Below, in pieces: positions 1 through 64,000 of a stretch of DNA of 64,000 nt. Below the pieces are notes generated by a model. It saw only the letters and a program-made list of their open reading frames with translations, did no database searches and was not told the origin of the DNA. The translations under genes were made by a program, and so were the position numbers. The stretch comes from a virus. Each line of letters opens with the position of its first letter. Position 1 is the first letter of the stretch. Location: the IMG/VR virus record IMGVR_UViG_3300045988_160012; one strand, given 5' to 3'.

Positions 1-204
1 GTTATTCTTTATCAGAATGTGCTTATCAGAGTTTTTGTTCCTCATAAAATTCGTATTTTATGTGTAAATCAAGACCCTTGAAAGCCCTTAAAACAAGGTA
101 TTTCTCCAATTATCAAAAACTGCTGCCAATAGCCCTTTTAAGCCTGTAATAGCCTATAATAGCCTGTTTTAAGCCTATATTAACAAAAAAGACCCTGTAA
201 CCAT

Positions 205-12011: not shown

Positions 12012-12039
12012 TTCACCTCATAAAATCTGGATTTTATGT

Positions 12040-24600: not shown

Positions 24601-25211
24601 ACCTCTAAGAAGCATCTATGCTTATTTTTCACCATCCATTTAACCAATGTCTGAAAAGCTTCTCTTCTTTCAGCGGTATCCCATTTATTTAATGGTGATG
24701 CTAAACAGGCAGAGGTAATAATAACATTATCACTTGTACCCATAAGTTCTTTCAAAGAAATTCTTGGATTATGATACATATGTCTATCGCTTTTATCTTC
24801 AAGTTTACCTTTTAAGGTAGATACTGAAAGTAATTTATTGATTTCAAGAACTCCATCCCAGTTCCTTGCATACAATCCAATATGACCACCTCTATCATCG
24901 TCCTGTAGCTCAGTACACAAATACATTTCAACACCATGAATATATTTGATACCAGCTTTATCACATTCCTGTTTTTTCTTTATCCAGTCGTAGCAATTTC
25001 CATGTTCTGAAAAGGCTAATGCCTTCATGTTTTGCTTCTTTGCAAGTTTGATATATTCTTTAAACTTAGAACAGGAATCTGCATATCCATTTGCATTAGA
25101 ATAATCACTGTGTAGATGATAAACTGTGTAATTGTCATAGTTGAGAACATTGTATGGAATTGTTTTTTGTGTTACATTATCCATTACATTTCCTCCACTC
25201 AAAATGCACAT
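21630..25211 (-). CDS. dnaE: DNA polymerase III alpha subunit (PHP + polymerase core)
   Basis: PHP-domain motifs YHLHSDYSNA and FSEHGN; the palm GTGRGSVCGSMIAFITNITDVDP (cf. DnaE GxGRGSxxGS); ~1190 aa uninterrupted. Confidence 0.9.
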   Translation of the reverse strand: MCILSGGNVMDNVTQKTIPYNVLNYDNYTVYHLHSDYSNANGYADSCSKFKEYIKLAKKQNMKALAFSEHGNCYDWIKKKQECDKAGIKYIHGVEMYLCTELQDDDRGGHIGLYARNWDGVLEINKLLSVSTLKGKLEDKSDRHMYHNPRISLKELMGTSDNVIITSACLASPLNKWDTAERREAFQTLVKWMVKNKHRCFLEVQYHNCENQKIYNKKMYFYSKKTGIPLIAGTDTHSSSPYKAECRKILQKYKDSFYGEEDEFDLTWKTYEELIAAFKAQNCLPEEVYMEAIRNTNVLADMVEEFTLDKAFKYPTLYGDNVREQWKQLIYTNFDEKCRNGKLKLPSKILKECNEYFSEHPITPTDESEREIYENYKENLEWANTHTDAEIIEQYKKKIIEEFKVMCKLGMESFMMFMSELISWAKDNDIPCGTGRGSVCGSMIAFITNITDVDPMVWNTVFSRFCNEDRISLGDIDVDFAGEDREKVYAYIIKRFTPEKTAYIAAFSTLQDRGCIDVLAGGLGYKDLDKVMEIKNKFDEYFSRYSKIVQEEVNTEELVENGETETGSISFDNHKVYMLHIAQEKQRKQLDVIKKSYDKLIAENQDLFYYLNGLKDTIVAKGTHPSGIIGSPITLADNIGLFYKDGDSEMPVSICAMKAVDSLNYVKFDILGLKTVGIIKDACKYAGIPYPKSYELNWNDPKVWHNMITAQQGVFQFEGDYAFSLLKDFKPNTINHMSMVNAALRPSGKSYRDRMIAGEHNDNPSKEIDDLLASNNGYLIFQEDTIKFLTDICGFTGSAADTTRRAIGKKDKELLKQQLPKILEGYCSHSSQPRVKAEAEAKQFVQIVQDSSEYQFGYNHSTAYSMNGYECVWLRTYYTIEFVAAYLNRAENKDDTNYGIELARMNDIKIKPIQFGKSMDEYAIERETNSIYKGIASIKYCNSIIAKELLEVSKQKKYTSFIDLLDDIAKTSVNNRQLNILTGLDFFSEFGKNKKLLQIIKLYNGIKMKPEGAKSPKTILPSLRTCSQIKKDKLESYAEYGLTEYLVKKYAGKETAKQYSQIDNVGLLNEMANRIADESMSIMEQVRFEKEYLEYVTYVNPKMADYYYIVVDYKTYKDETKPYMTLRNIKTGEETKTRIKQSKIYKQQPFGEFSILKIEGFTMDFKKKLINGQWTSTDEQEPILEEYEVIKKQ

Positions 25212-25277
25212 AAAATTTGGTTTTTATGGGGAAATGAGAGCCTTAATTTAAAGCTTTTTACATCTCCCCATTTTGCA

Positions 25278-39020: not shown

Positions 39021-40169
39021 TTACTCTATTAATAATTGAATCTGCTTCTGCATTTCATGTATAACCTTATCAGTTATATCTGTTGTAATATTGTCTGGTA
39101 GAGTAATTCTTAACGACTTTACTGCTTCTTCATCAGACAATCCTATAGCTTTCAATACATGAGATGGCACTGAGGAATGTGAATTACAAGCTGAACCAGC
39201 GGATACATATATATCACACAAATCCAACAAGTATATCATTGCTTCCCCCATTACATTTTGATTAAAAGTAATATTGATATTATTGGGAAGTCTGTCAGTA
39301 TATTGACCATTAAGCTTGCAACCAATTTTATCTAACAATTCACCAATCATATAGTCTCTTTGTTTTATTGTTGTAAGATATTTTTTCTGTTTCATATCTA
39401 CAGAACATAATTCAACTGCTTTAGCAAATCCCATTATATAAGGAAGGTTCTCTGTTCCACCTCTTAATCCATTCATTTGACTACCGTAAATCAACGGACT
39501 GATTTTTACATCTTCTTTTTTATATAAGATACCAATTCCTTTTGGTGTACCAATCTTATGTCCACTGGCACTCAACATATCAATTTTAGATGCCTTCACA
39601 TCAATTGGAATATGACCAAAAGCTTGTACTGCATCAGTATGAAATATTGCTCCATATTTATGTACAGTTAAAGCAATATCGTGAATATGTTGAATTGTTC
39701 CAATTTCATTATTTGCATATTGAATAGACACTAAAATATCTTCTCCACTTTTCTGTGAAATCACATATTTTAAAGTATCTTCTAAAGCTCTTAAATCAAT
39801 ACAACCGTTTGTATCAACATCTATAAAGTGAACATCAACCCCAATACCATCCACACATGACAATATAGATTTATGTTCGATTACAGAAGTTATAACTGAA
39901 GGTATTCTACCCTTTCTCAAACGATTTTGTACAAAGCCCTGTATCGCCCAACAATTACTTTCGCTTCCACAACTGGTAAAATATACTTCATACATTTCTG
40001 AATTAAGGAAGTGTGCTACTGTTTCTTTTGCAGATTTTAATGCATTAGCAGCTTCTTGAGCTGGACTATATAAAGATGATGGATTATACCACATATCCAT
40101 ATAAGAATAAATTGTATCTAAAACCTCTTTCTTTGGTTTAGTTGTTGCTGCTTCATCCAGATATATCAC
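39021..40169 (-). CDS. cysteine desulfurase (class V aminotransferase, IscS/NifS/DndA-like)
   Basis: MIYLDEAATTKP start; PLP-lysine region SASGHKIGTPKGIGILY; active-site Cys region SAGSACNSH. Confidence 0.8.
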   Translation of the reverse strand: MIYLDEAATTKPKKEVLDTIYSYMDMWYNPSSLYSPAQEAANALKSAKETVAHFLNSEMYEVYFTSCGSESNCWAIQGFVQNRLRKGRIPSVITSVIEHKSILSCVDGIGVDVHFIDVDTNGCIDLRALEDTLKYVISQKSGEDILVSIQYANNEIGTIQHIHDIALTVHKYGAIFHTDAVQAFGHIPIDVKASKIDMLSASGHKIGTPKGIGILYKKEDVKISPLIYGSQMNGLRGGTENLPYIMGFAKAVELCSVDMKQKKYLTTIKQRDYMIGELLDKIGCKLNGQYTDRLPNNINITFNQNVMGEAMIYLLDLCDIYVSAGSACNSHSSVPSHVLKAIGLSDEEAVKSLRITLPDNITTDITDKVIHEMQKQIQLLIE

Positions 40170-43190: not shown

Positions 43191-44090
43191 CTATTCAATC
43201 TTTACACCAATAAACTCAAGCACTTCTTTTAACCCCAACCCACCTTCTGACATAGGCTTCATACAATATTGCCATAATTTTGGATGAGTGATTTTTAGGC
43301 TTTGAAATCTATTCGGTTCTTTTTCAAGGTGACATCCATACATACAAAAGACGCATCCTGTTCTGTTACACTTTGTTGTCTGCCATTTTCCTTTATCATC
43401 CTGTATAATCTCTCCATATACAGGAGCATAAGGTAAATTATATTTCTTAATATATTCAAGAATATCTTGCTCTGTCCAAAATGATAGTGGTTGAGAAGTT
43501 GGTCGTTTTGTATCAAAAGCATTACATCCATGTACTTTCCATGCAGTTTTTCTTGCCTGACTCTCACAAGCCATAGTGCCGATTATTGGATGATTACCTG
43601 TTTCTTTTTCATATTTCTTTGCTGGCTTCTTTTTCATAACATTGCAACATTTATTACTAATAAGAAATGGAGCTTCTAATAAGAATTTCCATTTTTCACA
43701 ATTATAAATGCTTTTATTTCCATTCTTATCCAGCAATTCTCCATTTAATCTTTTTATCCGATATGTATATTTTCCTGTTGTTTCATGCCTTCTAGCTTCC
43801 TCAATAACCTGAGAGATTTCTTTACTTACAATCGGATAACCATATGTTTGAATTACTGTTTTGAAATTCATTTCAGGTCTTACCCATGTAACATTTTCAA
43901 CCGATTTTACAAACTCTCTCAACTCTGGATATTCAAGTCCTGTATCAACAAACACCGCTGGTGTATCTGGATAAAGCTTTCTAACCAAATGCAATAAAAC
44001 TGTGCTGTCCTTTCCTCCCGAAAAGGAAACATAAATTTGATTGTAAAAAGGAGTAAAGTTAATGGGTAAACAACCTAAAAGTAAGTTCAC
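43191..44090 (-). CDS. PAPS-reductase/DndC-like PP-loop ATP pyrophosphatase (body of gene; native 5' end currently inverted)
   Basis: YVSFSGGKDSTVLLHL (SGGxDS PP-loop) and a C-terminal Cys cluster CNRTGCVFCMYGC. The annotated start is a GTG with no RBS. Confidence 0.65.
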   Translation of the reverse strand: MNLLLGCLPINFTPFYNQIYVSFSGGKDSTVLLHLVRKLYPDTPAVFVDTGLEYPELREFVKSVENVTWVRPEMNFKTVIQTYGYPIVSKEISQVIEEARRHETTGKYTYRIKRLNGELLDKNGNKSIYNCEKWKFLLEAPFLISNKCCNVMKKKPAKKYEKETGNHPIIGTMACESQARKTAWKVHGCNAFDTKRPTSQPLSFWTEQDILEYIKKYNLPYAPVYGEIIQDDKGKWQTTKCNRTGCVFCMYGCHLEKEPNRFQSLKITHPKLWQYCMKPMSEGGLGLKEVLEFIGVKIE

Positions 44091-44200
44091 AAATGATGAT
44101 TTAAAAGTTATGCAAAGCTGGGATTTAGACCGTAAAATTGCAACTTCTCTTACAAGAATCGCTGAATTTTATGCCAAATATCCGCATAAAATTTATGTTT
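44027..44200. other. invertible DNA segment (12-bp perfect IRs aaacataaattt / aaatttatgttt) carrying RBS+ATG+45 N-terminal codons of the PP-loop gene in reverse orientation
   Basis: Plus-strand ORF AAAGGAG-N8-ATG (44062) encodes MGKQPKSKFTNDDLKVMQSWDLDRKIATSLTRIAEFYAKYPHKIYV. Inverting 44039-44188 joins it in frame to ...SFSGGKDSTVLL on the minus strand. Confidence 0.6.
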
Positions 44201-44264
44201 TAAGTGTTGTTAGATACAATATATAGTGTATTTATTTATATACTTATCCATATATTGTATTGCT

Positions 44265-46482: not shown

Positions 46483-47121
46483 TTATTCAACTTTTAAATC
46501 TTCATATCTTTTGTATAAGTGATTCTCGGCATAATACAAATTGTAATCACATTGTTCAATATACCACCAATCTTTTTTATGACCAGCTTTTAATTCGTCA
46601 TGTAAATGAGAAGATGTATTATAGTTGGAATCTACCATTTGACGAAAACTAAGTTCATCAATTTCGTTGCTGTTTTTTACAAATTCAGCAATCTCCAAGA
46701 TGTCTTGCATAGTCATATCATCTGTAACAACATAAACGACTCTAACAATTTCATTTTCCTGTCTGAAAATTTTTGATAATTGTTCTTTATTCCTTAAATG
46801 GTAAACAACCCTTCTGCACATTTTCATTGGAAAATTACTGTCAATATAGCTGGTGTGCATTTCTAAAGGAATACCCATCTCTTCAAGAATATCAAACAAC
46901 TTTTCATACCAATCTGTATGCTTTTCATATTCGTGCAATGGGTCACCACCACCAGATACAGATACAATATTGCAGCTATTCCCAATTAACATTTGTTTCA
47001 GATTATTTAATCCTGTTATTGTCGTTTTGGGAACTTTGATATTATTGTTTTTTACAATGCAATATGGACAACTATAGTGACATCCAAAATTTGTGATAAT
47101 ACTCAAATATTTTTCAATCAT
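46483..47121 (-). CDS. radical SAM protein, QueE-like (7-carboxy-7-deazaguanine synthase-like)
   Basis: GCHYSCPYC (cf. QueE CxYSCxWC) and SVSGGGDPL (cf. ISGGNPAL); RBS AAAGGAG. Confidence 0.5.
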   Translation of the reverse strand: MIEKYLSIITNFGCHYSCPYCIVKNNNIKVPKTTITGLNNLKQMLIGNSCNIVSVSGGGDPLHEYEKHTDWYEKLFDILEEMGIPLEMHTSYIDSNFPMKMCRRVVYHLRNKEQLSKIFRQENEIVRVVYVVTDDMTMQDILEIAEFVKNSNEIDELSFRQMVDSNYNTSSHLHDELKAGHKKDWWYIEQCDYNLYYAENHLYKRYEDLKVE

Positions 47122-48108: not shown

Positions 48109-49022
48109 TTACATAGATTTAAGGTTTTTTAGAATCCATGCTATAACATCTACCGTCCAACCATTTCCACACAATTCCACTCTTTTTGAAGCAGATTTTA
48201 CACATTCAGTAAAACCATCTGGTAGTGTCTGCAATCTTTCAGCTTCAATAGGGTGTATTTTTCTAAATGAATATTCACCAAGATAAATATTATTTTTGTC
48301 ATTACCAGAAGAAGGCAGCGTATTCATCTTGATAGTATTATATCTGGCTCTATTTTGTTGTGAATAATTTCCTTTTCCGCTTGTATCCCAACTAACAATA
48401 GTGTTATTCCTATTGAATCTAATTGTATCTTTGTATTTCTCAAAGCTTTTAATATCATGTTTACATGAATACTCAATATCTTTAATAACTTTATCAGAAT
48501 GTGGATACTCTTTTGAAAATGGTATATTAGTCCAATACAACCTTTTTCGCATTTGAGCAGAAAACTCCATTGAATTTATTTCAACAGGTTCGACCTGTAA
48601 TCTTTTGGAAATTTCATTTTGAATATCTTTAGATATTGAAGAGTTGTTTTCATACAAAAAATACTTGCAATGACTTTCATTCAATGCCCTTACAAACTGC
48701 ATAAACAACTTGAATCCCATGCCATCACAAGTAACCTCTCTATCTGCTCCTCCTCTTGCAATACTCCAGTATGTACATGGACTTCCACCAATCAGCAAAT
48801 CAAATCCCTGATATTGCGTGAAATCACCTTCAAATACATCTCCTAAATATTCATCAGATGGATAATTATATTTCGCTACAGCATTGGCAGCTTCTTCTAT
48901 TTCATACGACACGTATCTCTCTACTGGAATACCAGCTCTTTCTAAAGCAACTCTTCCGCATGATATTCCGTTGAATAAACTTAATACTGTAATCCCTTTA
49001 TCTGGAATTACTCTTTTATGTT
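48109..49022 (-). CDS. dcm: C5-cytosine DNA methyltransferase lacking its start codon in the current orientation
   Basis: Motif IV GGSPCTYWS and ENN motif inside the annotated 48109..48912 ORF (GTG start). The frame stays open upstream to 49022, encoding motif I VLSLFNGISCGRVALERAGI, with no start codon before a TAG. Confidence 0.8.
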
Positions 49023-49145
49023 GGGTGGCTACCTTATTTTAAATACTTTGTAGTATTCATTTATTCAGCCACCCAACATTTTTACATTATTCTCAAACGA
49101 AAGGAGCTTATTTTTATGCTTTTTGAACCTCATAAAAGAGTAATT
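49006..49145. other. invertible DNA segment (15-bp perfect IRs aattactcttttatg / cataaaagagtaatt) carrying RBS+ATG+first codons (MLFEP-HKRVI) of the C5-MTase in reverse orientation; contains nested 11-bp IR gttgggtggct/agccacccaac
   Basis: Plus-strand AAAGGAG (49100) -N9- ATG (49116) CTT TTT GAA CCT CAT AAA AGA GTA ATT. Inverting 49021-49130 yields MLFEPHKRVIPDKGITVLSLFNGISCG... in frame on the minus strand. Confidence 0.65.
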
Positions 49146-49192
49146 TTATGTGTACTCAAAGTCCTTATTTTAAAGCTTTAAAAGGTATAACC

Positions 49193-50027: not shown

Positions 50028-50786
50028 TTAAATTGCAACAGGTAAATCATTCGGTGTATAGACTGGCATTGGTTTCAGCTTAAAAATATTCTTCTTATGC
50101 ATAGAGTCAATCTTATGTTTGATATTTTCATCTTCACATTCACCTGTTCTGATATATCTGTTAAGTGTTGCATATGAAAATCCCAGATTATCTTCATCTG
50201 TAAGTCCACACAAACCATCAATCGGAACTTTTCTTGTCAACTCTTTAGGTAATCCAAGATACTCTCCAATAGCAATTACTTCATCGGTTGTAAGCAGAGA
50301 TAACGGACTAAAATCACCAGCTCCATCACCGTAACGTGTAGCGTATCCCACCCAATCTTCACTAAGATTACAAGTATTTGCCACTCTGCCATTTAAAGTC
50401 TGTGCAATAGCATATAATGTAGCCATTCTAATTCTTGCTGGAAGATTGGTACTTGTCTGCATACTCCAATGGTCGCACAACTGAGGTTTGATTTCATGTT
50501 TCAATGATTTAATTGCTCCATGAATGTCTACCGTATAGTTTTCAATACCAAGATGGTCAACAAGTTTGTATGCCATATCAATATCTGACTGTTCACCATT
50601 TGGCATAAGAACACCAATCACTCTATCTTTTCCCAGAGCTGCTACACATAATGCAGCAACTACGCTTGAATCTTTGCCACCTGAAATACCTACTACAGCA
50701 TCACAACCATTTCCATTAAGTGAAAACCAGTCCTGAATCCATGCGATAATTTCTTTTGTTGTCTTTTCTACATTAAACTTATACAT
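50028..50786 (-). CDS. nadE: NH3-dependent NAD+ synthetase
   Basis: PP-loop VVGISGGKDSSVVAAL and NadE-like length and pattern. Confidence 0.8.
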   Translation of the reverse strand: MYKFNVEKTTKEIIAWIQDWFSLNGNGCDAVVGISGGKDSSVVAALCVAALGKDRVIGVLMPNGEQSDIDMAYKLVDHLGIENYTVDIHGAIKSLKHEIKPQLCDHWSMQTSTNLPARIRMATLYAIAQTLNGRVANTCNLSEDWVGYATRYGDGAGDFSPLSLLTTDEVIAIGEYLGLPKELTRKVPIDGLCGLTDEDNLGFSYATLNRYIRTGECEDENIKHKIDSMHKKNIFKLKPMPVYTPNDLPVAI

Positions 50787-50846
50787 TCTGTACTTTCCTT
50801 TCTATTCAATTTGAGGTGGACTTTCATCCACCTCACCAACAATTGC

Positions 50847-51374
50847 TTAACCTAAATCATATCTCCAAATTTCTACATCTACAGAAGATTTACCAAACAC
50901 ATCCTGAATAATTTTATACACATCATTCCAATCTGCACCACCTCTATAGCTTCCAATTCGATATGGCATAGCAACTGTCGCTCCAATCTTCTCAGCTTTC
51001 TCACGAACATCCAAGAAAGCCATTTTCATTGCAGTTAAATCAGTCTGCTGCTCATCCATACCAAAATTCTTCTGACCAAAAAGATTAACAATATACTGAT
51101 ACTTAGAATCATATGCTTCAACATTTTCATTCTTCATAGTATCAACCATTACCATAGCCCATGTATCAACTGGAACATACTGAACTGTTCCAAGCATTTC
51201 AATTTTATTTTTATTGCAATGCTTCACATATTTAACATATGCCTTTTCAACATGAGGGTATCTGTCAGCTACCTGTGCTGCTACACCGCTTCCCATAACA
51301 CCTAAACAATTTGTCTGGTGTACAATAAAATTTGCATCTGAATCAAAAAGATTTCCATTGATGTTCTTAATCAT
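50847..51374 (-). CDS. macrodomain protein (ADP-ribose binding/processing)
   Basis: MIKNINGNLFD...FIVHQTNCLGVMGSGVAAQV matches the macro-domain signature. The start is probably the internal Met at 51374, not the annotated 51431. Confidence 0.7.
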   Translation of the reverse strand: MIKNINGNLFDSDANFIVHQTNCLGVMGSGVAAQVADRYPHVEKAYVKYVKHCNKNKIEMLGTVQYVPVDTWAMVMVDTMKNENVEAYDSKYQYIVNLFGQKNFGMDEQQTDLTAMKMAFLDVREKAEKIGATVAMPYRIGSYRGGADWNDVYKIIQDVFGKSSVDVEIWRYDLG

Positions 51375-51387
51375 CTTTATCCCTTTC

Positions 51388-51638
51388 TTAGAATCCTTTA
51401 CTTTCTGCATGGATGCTATTTCTGATTTCATTTAATGTCTGGTTACGAACAACCTTACCATTAAGGAATACAGTCTCAAGCATATTAATATCAGACTCTT
51501 TCACATCATCTGTTACAACCTGACCCTTTTGGATTCCATCAATATATTTGATTTCTCCATCTTTGTTACGATATACTCTGACCATACCCTTCTGAGATTT
51601 CTTAACACCATCACCTGTTTTCGGGTCTTTTTGAACAA
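51388..51638 (-). pseudogene. nadV: 3' fragment (~83 codons) of the NAMPT/NadV-like gene, separated from its body by the IS insertion
   Basis: The frame is open from the IS boundary: VVQKDPKTGDGVKKSQKGMVRV...NMLETVFLNGKVVRNQTLNEIRNS. This matches the conserved NAMPT C-terminus (..VFKDP...KKG..L.HTVFKNGKV...DEIRKNA). Confidence 0.7.
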
Positions 51639-51920
51639 CCCCGCCCGACGGGTCGGACGAGGATTCCGTTGCAGCCGTCAGGATTTCTCACATTGGGATG
51701 CATTGGAACCGCGATTTAGTCCAGAGTTACGCTTTTCCTAACTTCGCCGACATCTTGCGGTGCTTTGTAAGTCAGGAACAGGATTGCCCTAGTGCCGTCC
51801 GTCCACCCCCACATTGTATCATACGATTGATACACATCCAGAAAGTGGTGACAAAAGGGCAAGATTTACAGTTACAATTCTATATTGTTTTCGGGTTACC
51901 TTGATTAAAAAGTTTATAGA
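51639..51920 (-). ncRNA. putative omegaRNA/reRNA scaffold of TnpB (3' end of tnpB through right-end hairpin)
   Basis: GC-rich, structure-rich non-coding stretch between the tnpB stop and the IS end. Its position matches the established location of TnpB guide RNAs. Confidence 0.35.
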
Positions 51921-53666
51921 TTACTCAAATACTGGCATATACCGTATTTTCATTTCAGCGGCTAAAGTTCTTAAACTTGGTCGCTTTCTTTCTTCTAGCA
52001 CCTCATACGGAATGCTTCGGTAGAAGAAATGTTTTCGAATACCTGAAAATGTATTTGTGATCCTTGCCCAGATATTCTTGTAGGTTTCTTGTGAAAACTC
52101 TGGTACAGTACCTTCTTTTGTTTTCAGAAGATTTAGCATCCGCGAGTCTGGTACCAGTTTCTCATACAAACCGAGACCTACCAGACCAATCGTATATGCC
52201 GCAGCTTGATGAATGGAAATTCCATACTTTCGCATGAACAGAAACTTTCCCATTTGACTGGTATAGGCCGGATCAATCTTGCAAAAGGCAATTTCTCGTT
52301 TTAAGCTCTGATTTTCGATGCTTGATGCAATCCTCTGATAAGCAAATAAGGTCATATGATGATTTCCTTTTCGATTTCCGTATTTTCTGGATGCCAGTTT
52401 GATCGTCAAATCAATGTCTTCCACAATGAGACGTTTATCCTTTTCTGCACACCAATCAAATATATCCTTCACTGCTGCTCCCAAAATATTTGTAACCTGA
52501 CCAGTAGATTTGTTCATAAGGTCAAATCGAATTAACTTCTGGTCAAGCAGTTTTCCGGTTTCATCCAGTTCTGCCAATGCAAAATGATCATAATTAATAT
52601 CCATAGAAATTGCACCATTTCCGTAATAACTGTTTTCATATGCTTTTAGCTTCATAGTAACGGAGATGATCAGATACTGCTTATTTTCCTTATCACGCTT
52701 CAAAATGAAATTGTAGCAAAGTGACTGTCGATCTTCTGGCTTGCAGGTAAAGTTTTTCTGAAAACTTTCTTCGTTTCTTGGAAGCTTAAAATCATGAAAG
52801 ATCGTAACAGAACCATCTATGCAGGTAACAGACAGATCTTTCCCATCATATTTACACAGGAAGTTTCCATACTTTGACGTATGTCTGCCCGGAAGTGACA
52901 TACTCTGGTGGCGCTTTTCAAAAAACTCTTGTCTCCATTTATTAGATGCCTTTTTCGAAGTTTTCTGGTCCTTATCATTTGATGAATCATCGGATTTTGT
53001 AACTTCAACTACATCTTTCTCAGAATACAACTTCTTTCCACCAAACACAATCCGCTCTGGTGGAAGTTTTTCAAGGTTCTCCAGTTTCTTCGCTTTGCGT
53101 TTTCTTGCTTCTGTTACCAAAGCCAAACGTGTCTTTAACTTACGAATATCAGCTTCAACCTTACGCTCATACTCATCCAGATTCACCATCATCTTATTAA
53201 ACAAAATGATCTTAAATCCTCTAACCTTCGACTGGCATTTCGGATATGGTTTAATCCATTTTTTTGTTTTTATATAGAGACGAATGGAGTTTTTAATTGC
53301 TCTCTTTTTATCCAACTCTTCTTTCACAGACTGAATCTTTTCATCACGATTCTTTAAATCTGCAGCGATTGTCGTTTTATAATACTTTTTTAGTTCCTTT
53401 TGTGAAGAAATCTGTCCAGAAGCTGCTGTATAGATTGCTGCATTATAATAATCATTGGTTTTGTATTTTTCTTTCAAAAAGACAGGATAGGCATGGTCAA
53501 GTAACGGCCCTGCATTTAAATATTTCTGATCATAGAGTGCATTGTACAGATCCATTTTGGCATCATTAAATACACGCATCGTCTCTAGAAGCGATGCGGC
53601 ATTTTCAATGGTTTTCTTATCTAAATAGTAACGCTTATCCGAATTGATTGTCCTTGATAGTTCCAT
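51921..53666 (-). CDS. tnpB: TnpB-like RuvC nuclease (OrfB_IS605 family), atypical long form
   Basis: RuvC-I ISMDINYDHFA, RuvC-II RLIVEDIDL, and the hallmark IDPAYTSQ. Probable ATG start at 53666 with RBS CCGAGGT (the track start at 53705 is a TTG). No CxxC...CxxC zinc finger after PAYTSQ. Confidence 0.6.
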   Translation of the reverse strand: MELSRTINSDKRYYLDKKTIENAASLLETMRVFNDAKMDLYNALYDQKYLNAGPLLDHAYPVFLKEKYKTNDYYNAAIYTAASGQISSQKELKKYYKTTIAADLKNRDEKIQSVKEELDKKRAIKNSIRLYIKTKKWIKPYPKCQSKVRGFKIILFNKMMVNLDEYERKVEADIRKLKTRLALVTEARKRKAKKLENLEKLPPERIVFGGKKLYSEKDVVEVTKSDDSSNDKDQKTSKKASNKWRQEFFEKRHQSMSLPGRHTSKYGNFLCKYDGKDLSVTCIDGSVTIFHDFKLPRNEESFQKNFTCKPEDRQSLCYNFILKRDKENKQYLIISVTMKLKAYENSYYGNGAISMDINYDHFALAELDETGKLLDQKLIRFDLMNKSTGQVTNILGAAVKDIFDWCAEKDKRLIVEDIDLTIKLASRKYGNRKGNHHMTLFAYQRIASSIENQSLKREIAFCKIDPAYTSQMGKFLFMRKYGISIHQAAAYTIGLVGLGLYEKLVPDSRMLNLLKTKEGTVPEFSQETYKNIWARITNTFSGIRKHFFYRSIPYEVLEERKRPSLRTLAAEMKIRYMPVFE

Positions 53667-53699
53667 GCAAATTACCTCGGTTGAAAAATAGGTTAACTG

Positions 53700-53755
53700 T
53701 TGCAATATCTCTTTAAATATGCTATTATTATAGCATATTTAAAGAGATATTGCAA
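53700..53755. promoter_or_regulatory. perfect 26-bp-arm palindrome (TTGCAATATCTCTTTAAATATGCTAT tatt ATAGCATATTTAAAGAGATATTGCAA) between divergent tnpB and tnpA
   Basis: Read directly; sits in the divergent promoter/operator position. Confidence 0.7.
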
Positions 53756-53786
53756 GTATCGATTGTAAAATGAACGGAGGTTTCTT

Positions 53787-54236
53787 ATGGACGATTTAAA
53801 CAGAAAACGACATGCCGTTTACAAACTCACTTATCATGCAGTGTTTGTTATTAAATATCGCAGAAGGGTAATGACAGAACCCATCATTACACACATGAGA
53901 CAGTATGCTACTCATCTGATTGAACAGTGTTATCAGGGAAAGCTTCTCGAACTAAATGGAGAACCCGATCACATCCATATCCTGTTTGAACTTCCTGCAA
54001 CAGCAGCTCCATCCGTTGTTGTGTGCAGTCTTAAGACCCAACTTTCAAAAGAAGTTCGAGCAAAATTTTGGGATAAGATCAAAGATAAGCTCTGGAAGGA
54101 TAGCTTCTGGTCAGACAGTTATTTCATTACCACTACCGGAGGCGCAAACATTGAAACACTAGAAAGATATATCCAAGACCAAGGGATTGAAAAACCAAAA
54201 CGAAAATATACCAAAAGACAAGCAAAGAAAATGTGA
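53787..54236 (+). CDS. tnpA: IS200-type HuH Y1 transposase
   Basis: HuH motif DHIHILF; catalytic Tyr region FWSDSYFITTTGG; RBS GGAGG. Confidence 0.85.
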   Translation: MDDLNRKRHAVYKLTYHAVFVIKYRRRVMTEPIITHMRQYATHLIEQCYQGKLLELNGEPDHIHILFELPATAAPSVVVCSLKTQLSKEVRAKFWDKIKDKLWKDSFWSDSYFITTTGGANIETLERYIQDQGIEKPKRKYTKRQAKKM

Positions 54237-54293
54237 AAATACCATTGCACTTGATATTGATTTATTTTTTATGCCGCATTCATCCCCGCCCGA

Positions 54294-55838
54294 CTATGTC
54301 GGACGAGGTTTTCTGCGGAGAACTGGATAAACCAAAATAGGTTTACCATTGATTTCAGCATATGTAGCTTTATAAGCCCAGCCCTGTGTATCTCTTGTGT
54401 TATACTGGAAACTGTAAGAACCAGCACCAAATACTACATTTTCAACTGCATAGCCAAGGTTAGTCATATGATTACAAATGCTTTCACATCTTTCAAGTGT
54501 AATAGCATCTCCGTACACCATTCCAATATGAGAGTCTAATACTTTATACCCCTTAGAGTTTATAGTTCCACCGAAAATCTCCCAAAGAATATCCAGTGTT
54601 CCTCTCTCTTCAATAGTGGCATCACGATATGTGAATGTGTCGTTCTCACCATCATTAGACCATGTAGCAATATATTTCTTATTTCCAATCTCAAGGTAAA
54701 TTGGAACAAGCTGTCCAGACGTATCTGTTTCATTGCAATAAAGTGACTGCATCATCGGACTTCTGGTATAGTAAGATTCAAATGCTTCTTTACTTTCATG
54801 GGCTTTCCACATTGGGGCAATACCACAAATAATCTCTTCTGGGTCACCGCTGTCAGGTCTAATATTGATTCTGCCTGTATGATTAAGAATTACATCCTTA
54901 TTTTTTCTAACAATATTGTCAACAAAATTCCAGTAATCATAACTGTCTGCCACAAAGCTGAAAGGTTTATTTGGATAAAGCTCTTTACACATTCTTACAA
55001 AAAATGTTTCTTCATCTCCATCTACTGCATAATTGCTTGTAGTACAAGAATGTTCAACAGATGCAGACCAGCTTCCAACATCCTCATTTTCAACATCAGC
55101 TCCATAGTAATCACAAAGATACTGAATTGAAGGGATTGTAGATGTTTTATCGAAGCTTGTTAAAAATGCAGCTCCGCTTGTAATAGCAGCATCAAGACTA
55201 GCCATACCTCTAAAAGAAAAATCGCCACAACCAACTCTCTTCCAATTCGGATTGTCAGATGTTAAAACAATATATTTTTCAATAATCTTTCTGTAAATAT
55301 AAGCTCTTGTTGCTGTTGTTGTAGGTAACCATAAATTACAAGAAAATAATGTCTCAAGATAATTTGTTACCCATGCAAAATCAGGATGTGTATTTTCGAC
55401 TGTACAACAAGGTACTCTATATGGTACTTTTGTACCTTCTGGCAAAGCCTTAATCTCAATCGGGAGATAGCCAAGTTTATGAAGTGCTTCAATATGTTCT
55501 GTATGAGCATTTTCATCAAATGTATTATGGATATACAACTTATACTCATTAAGCACTTCGTCTAACGGTCTATCAAAGAAATATTCATTAAACTGTTTTA
55601 CCAAATATTCCTTAATAAATCCCTGTAATCCAAACCAGATTACAAATTTGCTCTGAGGAAAGAATTTGTTACTACGTGGTGTCCAAGTGGAATACATCAT
55701 TGTCATTCCATCTGGATACATAGCCCGATGTGCAATTTTATAAAAATCGCATAATAACATCATATTCTTCATTTTACTTATCCTCCTTACAATGGCATCC
55801 ACAACCGCAATCACATACGTTCTCAGCATAATCAACAT
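54294..55838 (-). CDS. nadV: nicotinamide phosphoribosyltransferase-like (NAMPT/NadV or Namat) body; C-terminus truncated by IS (last ~7 codons read into IS hairpin)
   Basis: NAMPT-like length and architecture. The C-terminus ...GKPILVYPVLRRKPRPT* ends inside the IS end. Its native continuation is found at 51638-51388. Confidence 0.7.
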   Translation of the reverse strand: MLIMLRTYVIAVVDAIVRRISKMKNMMLLCDFYKIAHRAMYPDGMTMMYSTWTPRSNKFFPQSKFVIWFGLQGFIKEYLVKQFNEYFFDRPLDEVLNEYKLYIHNTFDENAHTEHIEALHKLGYLPIEIKALPEGTKVPYRVPCCTVENTHPDFAWVTNYLETLFSCNLWLPTTTATRAYIYRKIIEKYIVLTSDNPNWKRVGCGDFSFRGMASLDAAITSGAAFLTSFDKTSTIPSIQYLCDYYGADVENEDVGSWSASVEHSCTTSNYAVDGDEETFFVRMCKELYPNKPFSFVADSYDYWNFVDNIVRKNKDVILNHTGRINIRPDSGDPEEIICGIAPMWKAHESKEAFESYYTRSPMMQSLYCNETDTSGQLVPIYLEIGNKKYIATWSNDGENDTFTYRDATIEERGTLDILWEIFGGTINSKGYKVLDSHIGMVYGDAITLERCESICNHMTNLGYAVENVVFGAGSYSFQYNTRDTQGWAYKATYAEINGKPILVYPVLRRKPRPT

Positions 55839-56709
55839 TCATAGCAAACACAGTTACATTTTCATCACTTTTAAAAGGATAAATGCTATCTGTTGTGAAT
55901 ACATGGTCAATCAGCTTTCTGTGCTGAGTTGTTCCGAAAATACTTTTCTTTTCATAGTCCACTGTAAGAAGATTCATTTTATCGTCACCAAACTGACCAT
56001 CATAAATACTCTTTTCACAATGAGAAACAAACAGATAAATGTTTCTTGCCCCCATCTCTTTCAATTTCTTTGCTGCATAATAGAAAGTTCCACCCTTACT
56101 ACAAATATCATCACGAATAAGAATATCTTTTCCTTTAATATCTTCAGGTTTAATTCCCATGACATCTAATCCAAGAATCCGACCTGTTCCCCATTCTCTT
56201 TTCTTAACACCAAATGCATACGGAATCTTAATCCCTTTAGAATATCTCTTCATAGCCCCCTCATCAGGGAAAAACATAATCGGTGCAATACCATCGTGAA
56301 TCAACATATCAAGCACGTTGCTCACAAAAATATTAGTATTGATTACATTGCAATTCTTGATAGTTGCTGCTACAACACTTGAATGTGGGTCAACTACAAA
56401 TACTCTGTCAAAATTCAGAGAATTAATCATTTCTGCAAAATACTTCATAGCAAAAATATCATTTGGCTCTTCGATTCTGTCCATTCTTGCGTTAGGTACA
56501 TATGGAAGGAAAAGAGATACATTCATTCCATGTGCCTGATAGAATTTTGTTAAGAATGAAACTGCTACAAACTCAGCATCATCCTCATAATTCCAAGTAA
56601 TAACAACTGTTTCTCCCTGTAAGCTAACATCACCTTTTACATTTGCTGTTCCATCAGGAAATCTCTTTACTTCAACTTCTTTTCCATTTACTCTAATCAT
56701 AATCTTCAC
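55774..56709 (-). CDS. prs: ribose-phosphate pyrophosphokinase-like (Prs; or ADPR-PP synthetase Adps of NARP1-type pathways)
   Basis: VKRFPDGTANV...; LPYVPNARMDR; PRPP-binding loop LIRDDICSKGGT. Confidence 0.7.
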   Translation of the reverse strand: MKIMIRVNGKEVEVKRFPDGTANVKGDVSLQGETVVITWNYEDDAEFVAVSFLTKFYQAHGMNVSLFLPYVPNARMDRIEEPNDIFAMKYFAEMINSLNFDRVFVVDPHSSVVAATIKNCNVINTNIFVSNVLDMLIHDGIAPIMFFPDEGAMKRYSKGIKIPYAFGVKKREWGTGRILGLDVMGIKPEDIKGKDILIRDDICSKGGTFYYAAKKLKEMGARNIYLFVSHCEKSIYDGQFGDDKMNLLTVDYEKKSIFGTTQHRKLIDHVFTTDSIYPFKSDENVTVFAMNVDYAENVCDCGCGCHCKEDK

Positions 56710-56751
56710 CTTTCTTTTTAGATGTATAACCTTAATAATTATAACCGTTAT

Positions 56752-57387
56752 TTAGTTTTCATTTGCCTGTGTGGATTCATCTGTATCTGCCTTTGCTTCC
56801 GTTGTTTCTGTAGATTCTGAATTTTCTCCATAATGTCTACCAATTACATCAACCTGACAACTTGCCATTGTTCTGAGAGCTGCATTATGAGCTTTAATAC
56901 TTGTACCAGCACAACAATGACTATCAACCTTAATTACCGTATTTGGCATAGCAGTTCTTAAACCAATGGCATTTGCTACAACACAAATATCTGTGCATAC
57001 TCCGCAAAGTTCGATTTCATCACTACTACTACACACCTGAGAAAGAATTGCAATCAAATCCTTGCTTGCAAATGTATTTTTATCAACTACACCTACATAC
57101 TTTTTCTGTTTGCGAAGCATCTGAACAGCTTCCCAAACATCCTTGTTGATACTTTCTCCACCAGATTTTTTAATACAATGCGGTACAGGAAGTTTCTTGC
57201 CTTCAAGAGTATCCAGATAATTGTCATAATGAATATCTCTTGTCAGATAAATAGAATCATAATCCTTTCCGTATTTCTTCAGCTTTTTTACAAGCTTTGG
57301 CACAATGGCTTTTGTCTCGTCATTTCCTAACGCACCATCAATAAAGTCATTCTGCACATCCACTACAACCAAAATCTTTTTGTTCAT
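56752..57387 (-). CDS. pncA: isochorismatase-family hydrolase, nicotinamidase (PncA)-like
   Basis: VVDVQNDF N-terminal motif; catalytic Cys region ELCGVCTDICVVANAIG. Confidence 0.6.
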   Translation of the reverse strand: MNKKILVVVDVQNDFIDGALGNDETKAIVPKLVKKLKKYGKDYDSIYLTRDIHYDNYLDTLEGKKLPVPHCIKKSGGESINKDVWEAVQMLRKQKKYVGVVDKNTFASKDLIAILSQVCSSSDEIELCGVCTDICVVANAIGLRTAMPNTVIKVDSHCCAGTSIKAHNAALRTMASCQVDVIGRHYGENSESTETTEAKADTDESTQANEN

Positions 57388-59243: not shown

Positions 59244-59612
59244 TTTGATTCCTCCTTATTATTTAACCTTTAATATAATGTATAACCTTAACAGTTATAT
59301 CTTTAAAAGAAAGCTTTTTGAATCTCTCTTAACTTGTATTCAGTATAGCACATTGCTTACTACTTGTCAACAACTATTTTAAAGTTTTTATCACTTATTT
59401 ATGTTGTTGTTACCGTCTTTCAATACATCATAGCACACAGAAATACGGAATTTTTACACATAAAACTAATATTTTATGTGTTAGTGAATATGAAATGCCA
59501 CCTGATTTTAAGTGTGTTTGGGAAAAGCAAGTAACATCCAGCTTAAAAGTTCATGAGCATATAGCCCGAACAGAAAAGCTTTTTATGTTGCATCCAGATA
59601 AATTACATACAT

Positions 59613-60248
59613 TTAAAGGGTGTTAATAGATACGTTGAAGCATAAAATATTAGTTTCTGCCACTTTTCTACACCAATCATAGAACTGTTCATAGTCAAAT
59701 TCACCTGTAGAATACTTTGTAACCCCTTTATATGGTGGGTCACAATAGATTAAAGTACCAGATAATGTATTCATATCAATATCCAGATAATTTTTACTGG
59801 TCAATTTAACATCTTGAATAAGCGGAACTTGTCTCATAATATTCCTTATTGCTTCATTTGGAATATCTCTAGGGGTTACACCATCTGCTTTAAATCCTCT
59901 GGCATAACCACCAAAGTATTTTGAACCAAATGTACTACAGAATCCAACCAATCCAACATAATAATCAGGATAATTCTCTTTGTTTAATCTGACAGAATTA
60001 TATTCATCTTCTGATATTGTTGATGGTGGTATCCAGCCTTCCTGAAGTTTTTTCAATAAAGCAATCAGTTCTTTATGAATGTCATTACCCACACGAACCT
60101 TACAATGAATTTTATCCATCATGTTCAATCCACCGCAGAATGGTTCGTAGTAGATACTGACATTATTATCATCAATTAGTGATTGTAATATTGGTGCAAT
60201 TTGTTTTGATACCTTATTTTTGCTTCCAACGTACTTAATAACAATCAC
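59613..60248 (-). CDS. dam: DNA N6-adenine methyltransferase (Dam family)
   Basis: KYVGSKNK (cf. KWAGGK), motif I YYEPFCGGLNMM and motif IV CDPPY. Start codon uncertain (GTG/ATT adjacent to AAGGAG). Confidence 0.7.
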   Translation of the reverse strand: MIVIKYVGSKNKVSKQIAPILQSLIDDNNVSIYYEPFCGGLNMMDKIHCKVRVGNDIHKELIALLKKLQEGWIPPSTISEDEYNSVRLNKENYPDYYVGLVGFCSTFGSKYFGGYARGFKADGVTPRDIPNEAIRNIMRQVPLIQDVKLTSKNYLDIDMNTLSGTLIYCDPPYKGVTKYSTGEFDYEQFYDWCRKVAETNILCFNVSINTL

Positions 60249-63486: not shown

Positions 63487-64000
63487 TAATACTGTACAGC
63501 TTCCTGTCTGGTGATAAAGAAATGGATTCCAGCAGCACATTCATCCCATCTGTCTGTCTCAAAATCCTCTACTTCAACCGTTGTTCCTACACGATAAATA
63601 AAATTACTATCGTAATTACTCGGAATTGAAGTTAATCCATCATCCTCACCATCTAAAGTTGTAATAGAAAGAACTTCTGCTTTAGAACAACGACACTTAC
63701 GACTTGTGGCACTGGAACGTAAAGCATCTTCCGTTATTCTAAGTTTTACAATATGACCATTTGCTTTCTTATAACCAATGAATGAACCCTCTTCAGGGCA
63801 TACAAGAGCAAAGAACCCTGTACACTCATCATATCTAACATTCAGGAGGTCAGCACTTCTGAGGTCAGCACCACTGAGGTCAGCACCACTGAGGTCAGCA
63901 CTTCTGAGGTCAGCACTTCTGAGGTTAGCACCACTGAGGTTAGCACCACTGAGGTCAGCACTTCTGAGGTTAGCACCACTGAGGTCAGCACTTCTGAGGT
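63487..64000 (-). CDS. pentapeptide-repeat protein (partial; N-terminus beyond window)
   Basis: The frame is open to the window edge. 15-bp tandem repeats encode [20 protein letters not shown] ... (A[DN]LXX consensus). Ends ...[22 protein letters not shown] at 63487. Confidence 0.65.
63846..64000. repeat. 15-bp tandem repeats (gaggtcagcac[tc][ta]ct), >=10 units, coding
   Basis: Read directly. Confidence 0.9.

Follow-up and report, generated by a model that had tools for sequence, protein, structure and literature searches.

Invertible DNA segments of phages are known from tail fibre genes, as in Mu and P1. The G segment of Mu, acted on by Gin, and the C segment of P1, acted on by Cin, swap the end of a coding sequence and produce a mixed population of virions. 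Gene-altering programmed inversions are also known in bacteria (Milman et al. 2023, PMC9881135; Chanin et al., 10.1101/2023.03.11.532203). In these two papers, bacterial partial intergenic invertons have short inverted repeats with one arm in a coding sequence, their product is changed by the flip, and they were discovered by comparing related genomes or reads. The locus described here shares these properties and was followed by the same route. It occupies positions 44027-44200 of a 64,000-nucleotide stretch of viral DNA, IMG/VR virus record IMGVR_UViG_3300045988_160012 (the window), at the 5′ end of a gene for a PAPS-reductase-like protein. We propose that it is very probably a programmed gene-altering, "partial intergenic" inverton, flipped by site-specific recombination, and one of at least three independent switches in the same phage. 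The carrier is an uncultured gut phage of ~138 kb, its host probably of the Clostridia type.

An invertible cassette at the PAPS-reductase-like gene

The elements of the locus are listed below, ON and OFF referring to the orientation that does or does not give a complete gene.

43191..44026, minus strand: body of the PAPS-reductase-like PP-loop gene, from SFSGGKDS onward, with an invariant CC...CxxC motif
44023..44042, no strand: partner core site inside the PAPS-like coding sequence, AAGGAAA-CATAAA-TTTGATT, including repeat arm 44027-44038
44039..44188, plus strand: invertible cassette of the PAPS switch, 150 bp, OFF in the window
44185..44204, no strand: full core site on the non-coding (upstream) side of the switch, CATAAAA-TTTATG-TTTTAAG, including repeat arm 44189-44200

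The cassette is bounded by perfect 12-bp inverted repeats, AAACATAAATTT at 44027-44038, which spans the codons K-I-Y-V-S, and its exact reverse complement AAATTTATGTTT at 44189-44200. Its plus strand carries a ribosome-binding site (RBS), AAAGGAG (~44046-44052), located ~9 nt 5′ of an ATG at 44062, and encodes the first 42 codons, that is, the two N-terminal helices, of the PAPS-reductase-like protein. The minus-strand open reading frame (ORF) 43191..44090 starts with GTG without a Shine-Dalgarno sequence, and its residues 1-18 are the antisense of the cassette. Inversion of 44039-44188 in silico generated a single 324-aa ORF, MGKQPKSKF...YPHKIYVSFSGGKDS... (sequence MGKQPKSKFTNDDLKVMQSWDLDRKIATSLTRIAEFYAKYPHKIYVSFSGGKDS...), which matched PF01507 with E=1e-24. 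An earlier reading of this DNA (the original prediction) had placed the repeats, the RBS, the ATG, the GTG start with its 18 antisense residues and the in-frame fusion exactly where they were found; only the length that it gave for the plus-strand ORF, 57 aa, had to be corrected, to 54 aa. No promoter or terminator consensus was detected within or adjoining the cassette, so the flip acts on translation initiation and on the N-terminal 42 residues, not on transcription. In the ON state the cassette would supply the RBS, the start and 42 codons, joined in frame to the β1 strand and PP-loop of an Fe-S-type PAPS-reductase-like enzyme. In the OFF state, that of the window, the gene would be left without an RBS or a proper start, its helices replaced by antisense nonsense.

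Related genomes, designated here by L numbers, were compared with the window. Seven contigs that are 95-99% identical and collinear up to the repeats differed at this locus solely by a reverse-complemented 150 bp, ON in L041, L042 and L043 and OFF in the window, L001, L002 and L003; this assignment was obtained by alignment and blastn agreed with it. The breakpoint in the relatives falls exactly at the full core site 44185..44204. In metagenome 3300029795, the ON junction is carried by a contig of 123 kb and the OFF junction by one of 17.5 kb. Their flanks are identical over 97 bp, and the same strain-specific cassette is present in the two as exact reverse complements; a single sample therefore contains both junctions. 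Several contigs stop at the switch or close to it, as expected of a heterogeneous site.

A protein search with the reconstituted protein recovered both forms among near-identical proteins. Four clusters (P0001, P0002, P0004 and P0005; 88-96% identity, 100% coverage) are full-length ON forms and 25 clusters, with ~367 member sequences, are OFF forms with the antisense N-terminus M[VA]FKSSFVNLLLGCLPINFTPFYNQ-IYVSFSGGKDS, so that OFF dominates this gene. Exact-pattern scans of IMG/VR and JGI metagenomes returned 4+1 contigs only, and the orientation census consequently rests on the protein clusters. The conserved N-terminus of the wider family (60-75% identity), KYTNEDLKxMQSWxLxRKI..., matches the cassette product, indicating that the cassette encodes the authentic N-terminus. 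The invertible cassette with RBS, ATG and N-terminal codons proposed in the original prediction thus exists in nature in both orientations, with breakpoints at the repeats, and the outcome that it had named as speaking against it, a single fixed orientation in all populations, was not observed in the assemblies.

In a second lineage, whose PAPS-like protein is ~76% identical, the switch is found at the same codons and its repeat differs, being AAACGTAGATTCTA / TAGAATCTACGTTT. The I-Y codons there have synonymous changes, and the upstream arm has the matching ones, so that both arms have changed together. In this lineage the switch is ON in L053 and OFF in L050-52 and L054-57. Both states also occur within each of two PAPS sub-variants, and the states are interspersed among sub-lineages. 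The ON frame of the cassette has a ratio of nonsynonymous to synonymous polymorphism (pN/pS) of 0.10-0.28, even between genomes that are both OFF. Stops occur in the antisense frames, and the N-terminal peptides of antisense origin, VNLLLGCLPINF, MNLFSICCCLVIF and MLFFTHIFTIF, are unrelated between lineages. These results indicated that the OFF form is not a decaying pseudogene and that the antisense peptide is not under selection. A megablast search of the region against deposited phages found no match, and the closest annotated homologues, from Clostridia phages, are at most 55% identical and all have normal N-termini; the relatives retrieved for 10-28 kb are identical to the window there.

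An AlphaFold2 model of the ON protein (P0001) had a predicted local distance difference test score (pLDDT) of 93. Helices 11-18 and 22-39 (pLDDT 97-98) are located directly before β1 (44-47) and the PP-loop and pack on the PP-loop domain, and the cassette-encoded segment aligns with the N-terminal helix of CysD/CysH. The top PDB fold matches were CysH/APS reductases, with a template modelling (TM) score of ~0.6 to the target. Residues C173, C174, C271 and C274 are invariant and constitute an APS-reductase-type CC...CxxC Fe-S signature. On the model, the enzyme is of the APS/PAPS-reductase superfamily fold (PF01507) and of a predicted Fe-S type.

One site type at three genes

Two further loci in the window have the same kind of organization. 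One is a C5 DNA methyltransferase gene, already noticed in the original prediction as a second gene of this design, and the other a Dam-like N6-adenine methyltransferase gene.

48109..49005, minus strand: body of the C5 DNA methyltransferase gene (NCBIfam dcm, E=3e-25)
49001..49020, no strand: partner core site in the C5-methyltransferase coding sequence, TCTGGAA-TTACTC-TTTTATG, with repeat arm 49006-49020
49021..49130, plus strand: C5-methyltransferase cassette, 110 bp, OFF in the window, with RBS, ATG and 5 codons (MLFEP), antisense to the gene
49131..49150, no strand: full core site of the C5-methyltransferase switch, CATAAAA-GAGTAA-TTTTATG, with repeat arm 49131-49145
59459..59478, no strand: full core site belonging to the third switch, 3′ of the Dam-like gene, CATAAAA-CTAATA-TTTTATG, with repeat arm 59463-59478
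59479..59640, plus strand: cassette of the third switch, 162 bp, OFF in the window, antisense true C-terminal ~48 codons of the D12-class N6-adenine methyltransferase
59613..60248, minus strand: Dam-like (MethyltransfD12) gene, truncated OFF form, 211 aa
59641..59660, no strand: partner core site in the Dam-like coding sequence (codons E-T-N-I-L-C), CATAAAA-TATTAG-TTTCTGC, with repeat arm 59641-59656

The repeats of the C5-methyltransferase switch (49006-49020 and 49131-49145) are 15 bp long, and flipping the cassette yields a full-length enzyme with motif I (LSLFNGISCG). The switch does flip in relatives. The cassette is inverted (ON) in L041 and there serves a second methyltransferase body, A; the L001 junction has methyltransferase A OFF. 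In lineage 2, with the repeat AATTATCGTTTTA, it is ON in L050 and OFF in L053, and in a third lineage (L063) it is OFF and has yet another spacer.

Comparison of L041 4072-5019 with window 48913-49192 showed that L041 and L001 have an extra 315-aa C5 methyltransferase, A, joined to the start cassette. There the window-type methyltransferase, B, follows A without a repeat. The window lineage lacks A, and its cassette adjoins B directly. A three-site shufflon at the L041 locus was considered and rejected, as the second methyltransferase has no repeat; the locus is a simple switch on A. The C5-methyltransferase cassette region also includes, at window 49018-49079, a perfect 13-bp hairpin repeat, ATGTTGGGTGGCT / AGCCACCCAACAT, with a 36-nt loop, kept in position and different in sequence in lineages 2 and 3.

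The third switch (59463-59656), absent from the original prediction, was found when further inverted repeat pairs were searched for, as had been proposed for pairs flanking an RBS and ATG in antisense; this one swaps a C-terminus instead. A 16-bp repeat (59463-59478 and 59641-59656) surrounds 162 bp at the 3′ end of the D12-class gene. The protein ends ...TNILC-FNVSINTL* in the window, and with the cassette flipped it continues ...TNILC-VSEYEMPPDFKCVWEKQVTSSLKVHEHIARTEKLFML..., matching the family consensus C-terminus NILCVSEYxMPxDF...RTEKLF. The switch is flipped (ON) in L064, a 130-kb IMG/VR contig 98-99% identical to the window, and it is ON in L063. Many database proteins from several lineages break directly after TNIL(C); the OFF cluster has 369 members, and OFF dominates here too. 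All three switches therefore have flanking inverted repeats (12, 15 and 16 bp), occur in both orientations in nature with breakpoints at the repeats, and have one arm inside the coding sequence and the other outside, with a product that changes.

Alignment of the junctions identified a common site, CATAAAA-N6-TTTTATG, with 7-bp palindromic arms and a 6-bp spacer, which answered the suggestion that the repeat cores be compared for a shared recognition sequence. A first guess at the core, AATY-N4-TTT, was of low information and gave way to this 7-6-7 model when the third switch came to light. On the non-coding side of every switch there is a near-perfect full site, and a partner lies inside the coding sequence. 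The partner repeats the spacer exactly, inverted, together with the inner arm, and codons constrain its outer arm. The PAPS switch sites at 44023-44042 and 44185-44204 likewise have an identical spacer in inverted orientation. The spacers are private to each switch: CATAAA, TTACTC and CTAATA in the lineage of the window (lineage 1), CGTAGA and TTATCG in lineage 2 and TAATTC in lineage 3, lineages that the 7-6-7 model also fits. Allowing at most 1 mismatch, the site occurs 6 times in the window against 0.12 expected, a 50-fold excess that none of 100 shuffles reached, and zero times in ~370 kb from 37 other phage loci with 39-59% identical PAPS homologues. Altogether, the site search covered ~100 kb of the ~138-kb genome.

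Conserved arms around a free spacer that matches its partner are the classic logic of tyrosine recombinase core sites, Xer/dif being the closest analogy. The sites described here have these inverted arms and a central region identical between partners. Conservative site-specific recombination between the two inverted core sites would flip the PAPS cassette, the crossover falling within the identical AAA-CATAAA-TTT. The same site type, with private spacers, would drive the C5-methyltransferase switch at a 5′ end and the Dam-like switch at a 3′ end.

The states found in individual genomes were as follows.

Window: PAPS-like OFF, C5 methyltransferase OFF, Dam-like OFF
L041: PAPS-like ON, C5 methyltransferase ON, Dam-like not covered
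IMG/VR 3300045988_142724 (L002, L059, L064): PAPS-like OFF, C5 methyltransferase OFF, Dam-like ON
L050: PAPS-like OFF, C5 methyltransferase ON, Dam-like not covered
L053: PAPS-like ON, C5 methyltransferase OFF, Dam-like not covered
L063: PAPS-like not covered, C5 methyltransferase OFF, Dam-like ON

For the PAPS-like and C5 methyltransferase genes the combinations ON/ON, OFF/OFF, OFF/ON and ON/OFF all occur. These combinations across genomes indicate that the three switches act independently, and a phage population would be a mixture of up to 8 states.

Three perfect sites in the window stand alone.

43..62, no strand: solitary perfect core site, CATAAAA-TTCGTA-TTTTATG
12019..12038, no strand: solitary perfect core site, CATAAAA-TCTGGA-TTTTATG, directly 5′ of the RBS of a small minus-strand ORF
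25209..25228, no strand: solitary perfect core site, CATAAAA-TTTGGT-TTTTATG, 5′ of the Pol III alpha start

They are located 13-45 nt upstream of start regions, and the spacer of the site at 43 differs between strains (TACGAA, TACTAA, TGAGAA). No partner, inverted or direct, was found for any of them at ≤2 mismatches within 4-6 kb on either side, relatives included. Degenerate copies of the site precede RBSs in more distant phages, and a search beside the recombinase gene of distant relatives gave only such RBS-proximal copies. The solitary sites could act as operators, or they could be former switches that are now locked or seeds from which new ones arise.

The presence of the same site type on two DNA methyltransferase genes hints that the PAPS-like enzyme acts in nucleic acid modification. 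The protein belongs to phrog_424 ("PAPS reductase") and reached no NCBIfam equivalog cut-off. Three narrower assignments were rejected: the PADLOC match to DndC (E=4e-4) covers residues 23-61 only (39 residues), that to SspD (E=8e-9) residues 46-109 only (64 residues), and the BrxP match is limited to the P-loop region. Pfam and PADLOC scans of the neighbours revealed no dndD/E or sspB/C. Of the description "PAPS-reductase/DndC-like", the first half stands, given the fold of CysH/APS reductases, and the likeness to DndC goes no further than the PP-loop. The cysteine desulfurase reported nearby is indeed of the IscS/NifS/DndA/SspA type and is a conserved neighbour (39021-40169). The radical-SAM protein at 46483-47121 is a small conserved neighbour with a weak match (E=4e-4), and since its only NCBIfam match is weak and NrdG-like, the label "QueE-like" is unproven. 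Thiolation, which had been suggested as the modification, stays speculation. Separately, at a point corresponding to window ~8850, an extra N6_N4 DNA methyltransferase gene is present in L044 (2064-2690) and L046 (2064-2690) and missing from the window and L045, another layer of strain variation in modification genes.

Candidate recombinases and alternative explanations

No serine or tyrosine recombinase was found among window ORFs of at least 70 aa, and no serine invertase (PF00239/Resolvase) among these ORFs or the called genes of the flanking loci; serine invertase sites, 26 bp long with a 2-bp crossover, also differ in geometry from the 7-6-7 sites. The only recombinase-type gene in the window encodes an IS200-like Y1 transposase (53787-54236). 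It was rejected as the invertase because it is part of a 2.69-kb strain-specific insertion absent from relatives that still flip.

This insertion, of the IS200/IS605 type (window 51637-54326), splits a NAMPT gene into an N-terminal part (~54327-55771) and a C-terminal part (~51391-51636), and is absent from L041 and L047-L049. It carries the Y1 TnpA gene (53787-54236, plus strand) and an unusually long 594-aa ORF (51921-53705, minus strand), which has a weak TnpB-type match over residues 398-485 only and no Pfam match.

A better candidate is found ~5-9 kb past the window end, in a module recovered from relatives up to 99.9% identical (L047 2863-6589; also L054, L072 and L075). Its 264-aa protein matches PF00589 (E=2e-17) and phrog_216, and shows by eye the catalytic pattern R...K...HxxR...H...Y. 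Its matches to the XerA/XerC/XerD and FimB/E-type "tyrosine-type DNA invertase" models are weak and far below the equivalog cut-offs (30 bits against a cut-off of 221 for the FimB/E type). The module also includes a 317-aa recombinase-like protein (phrog_5830 "integrase", E=6e-13; weak MrpR_C_cat), a GmrSD_N/NsnA-like gene (DUF262-type, modification-dependent-nuclease-like) and, in L047, a 118-aa ORF. Phages with recombinases just 59-60% identical still retain this recombinase/GmrSD_N/MrpR-like module, and the 264-aa and 317-aa genes are present in all lineages checked. From these data we infer that the invertase may be the 264-aa Xer/FimB-like tyrosine recombinase or its 317-aa neighbour, the former being favoured. 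The dedicated recombination system for which the original prediction argued is supported by the 7-6-7 site shared by three genes, and its recombinase gene, outside the window, is a candidate only. Around the 264-aa gene, a 52-bp sigma-70-type promoter, TTGACAACTACATGAATATATGGTATCAT, is repeated (L047 2398-2449 and 3674-3725; also ~607-662), which suggests early genes read by a Firmicutes-type host RNA polymerase.

A broader model can be put forward tentatively, as plausible and not yet as probable. It describes a virus-encoded "phasevarion" in which one phage recombinase, acting on dif-like sites with private spacers, would control at least three modification genes and create up to 8 states per burst as counter-defence bet-hedging, the solitary sites serving as operators or seeds. 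In our main explanation, too, the purpose would be to hedge the modification of virion DNA, because hosts differ in their defences: classical restriction would call for modification ON, modification-dependent restriction for modification OFF.

The alternative that survives best accepts that the inversion is real and site-specific and assigns it to a host recombinase, of the XerC/D type acting on dif-like 7-6-7 sites, with the phage recombinase serving dimer resolution or integration. The sites do resemble a Xer core, with AT-rich palindromic arms and a 6-bp spacer (dif being taken from general knowledge). Moreover, the phage recombinase is ~25 kb from the switches in lineage 1, the 264-aa gene belongs to the conserved core of a phage group that is much wider, and no full sites adjoin it in L047. 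Against this, the 264-aa gene is present in every checkable lineage with switches, its module is ≤10 kb from the PAPS switch in lineage 2, and the phage, which has replication machinery of its own, looks virulent-type; an integrase role is therefore not obvious. On balance we consider a host recombinase unlikely.

Perfect inverted repeats of at least 12 bp, 30-800 bp apart, number 12 pairs in the window against ~6 expected, and a perfect 12-bp inverted repeat alone is not rare. What makes the PAPS switch significant is that the gene is restored in frame, together with the comparative data and the site motif that the switches share. Several observations weigh against our preferred explanation, a programmed inverton flipped by a phage recombinase. 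The recombinase assignment is based on co-occurrence, and a host recombinase (e.g., Xer on dif-like sites) would be conceivable. The orientation data come from assemblies and protein clusters, and they bear on reversible switching within a clonal population only indirectly, through OFF cassettes kept intact under purifying selection and states interspersed among sub-lineages. The predominance of OFF in assemblies could mean that the PAPS-like gene is often dispensable. Finally, given the solitary and RBS-proximal copies, the motif may also, or originally, be a regulatory operator.

Could the orientations instead be a stable inherited polymorphism, left by rare illegitimate or homologous recombination at short repeats? 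The chance frequency of perfect 12-bp repeats and the much commoner OFF state would suit such an origin. It does not agree with the finding of both junctions of one strain in one sample, of both states in two PAPS sub-variants and a second lineage, of a statistically unexpected site shared by three genes with repeats that co-vary on both arms, or of OFF cassettes kept intact under purifying selection, and we regard it as highly improbable. Equally little credence can be given to the notion that the OFF form is a functional alternative isoform, initiated at GTG or ATG with a different N-terminus. The antisense frame is open for 18-28 codons and many relatives have an ATG there (MVFKSSFVNLLLG...). 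Nevertheless, it has no RBS, the window has lost the ATG and retains GTG only, the antisense peptides are unrelated between lineages, and the segment replaced consists of two confidently modelled helices on the PP-loop domain, aligned with the CysD/CysH N-terminal helix. An assembly artefact, a mis-oriented bubble between short repeats, has a next to negligible probability: De Bruijn assemblers do break or mis-join at inverted repeats and L060 ends in a hairpin-like path, but dozens of independent assemblies (JGI, ENA, Logan) show each orientation in long collinear contigs, and both junctions would still have to exist in reads.

Other features of the genome were recorded. Window 50028-57387 contains an NAD+ salvage/reconstitution cluster with isochorismatase/nicotinamidase, a Prs-like phosphoribosyltransferase, NAMPT, a Macro domain and NAD synthase, which we take to resemble phage counter-defence against NAD+-depleting immunity; NAMPT is disrupted in the window strain. 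Before the window start, L044 15063-19503 and L045 14940-19380 have a module of TnsB-like (HTH_TnsB plus Mu-transposase C), TniB and TniQ genes that looks like a Tn7/Tn5053-type transposition module inside a phage genome. A pentapeptide-repeat gene (window ~63846-64000; L047 7953-8693, L048 8088-9158, L049 7833-8693) encodes 246, 356 and 286 aa in these three relatives, the variation being due to differing copy numbers of a 15-bp tandem repeat.

Comparison with known systems

DNA modification is commonly regarded as an invariable property of a phage. In this natural gut phage population it appears to be a state that is heritable yet reversible and combinatorial, and that can be read directly from metagenomes. 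This bears on phages facing hosts with both modification-blocked and modification-dependent nucleases, on phage methylome variation between samples, and on the phage "PAPS reductase" (phrog_424), which is widespread and of obscure function. A recombinase and 20-bp sites with orthogonality set by the spacer would also make a compact system, and read sets that already exist would allow phage "epigenetic bet-hedging" to be tested directly.

Full-text literature searches found no report of inversions toggling phage DNA modification genes, nor of phage systems in which several loci use one site type, each with a private spacer. A term search of the inverton catalogues (PMC9881135; 10.1101/2023.03.11.532203) found no phage methyltransferase or PAPS-reductase targets. 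The invertons in those papers are bacterial and chromosomal, and mostly shufflon-like swaps of specificity domains (hsdS, Type II restriction-modification, tail fibres, SusC). In contrast, the phage described here toggles enzymes ON and OFF by moving a start or a C-terminus, at three loci with one site type.

Gin of Mu and Cin of P1 are serine invertases with a Resolvase domain that act on 26-bp sites with a Fis enhancer, and their targets are tail fibre C-termini and host range. The phage described here has 7-6-7 sites and DNA-modification-type targets, and no serine recombinase in the window or the flanks covered. With respect to the enzyme, the likeness would be to systems that use a small tyrosine recombinase on short inverted repeats, such as FimB/FimE at fimS, PsrA/CreX at the pneumococcal hsdS and the Rci shufflon, by way of the candidate recombinase; fimS, however, carries a promoter, not a coding end as here. 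Xer/dif has in common with these sites the AT-rich inverted arms around a 6-bp centre that must match between partners. It resolves dimers at directly repeated single sites, whereas here the pairs are inverted, in or beside genes, and their spacers differ per locus. Finally, the phasevarions of bacterial pathogens are similar in that DNA methyltransferases go stochastically ON and OFF and give rise to epigenetically distinct subpopulations. They are bacterial, depend mostly on simple-sequence repeats and regulate host gene expression, whereas the switches described here belong to a phage, operate by inversion and would presumably serve to protect virion DNA.

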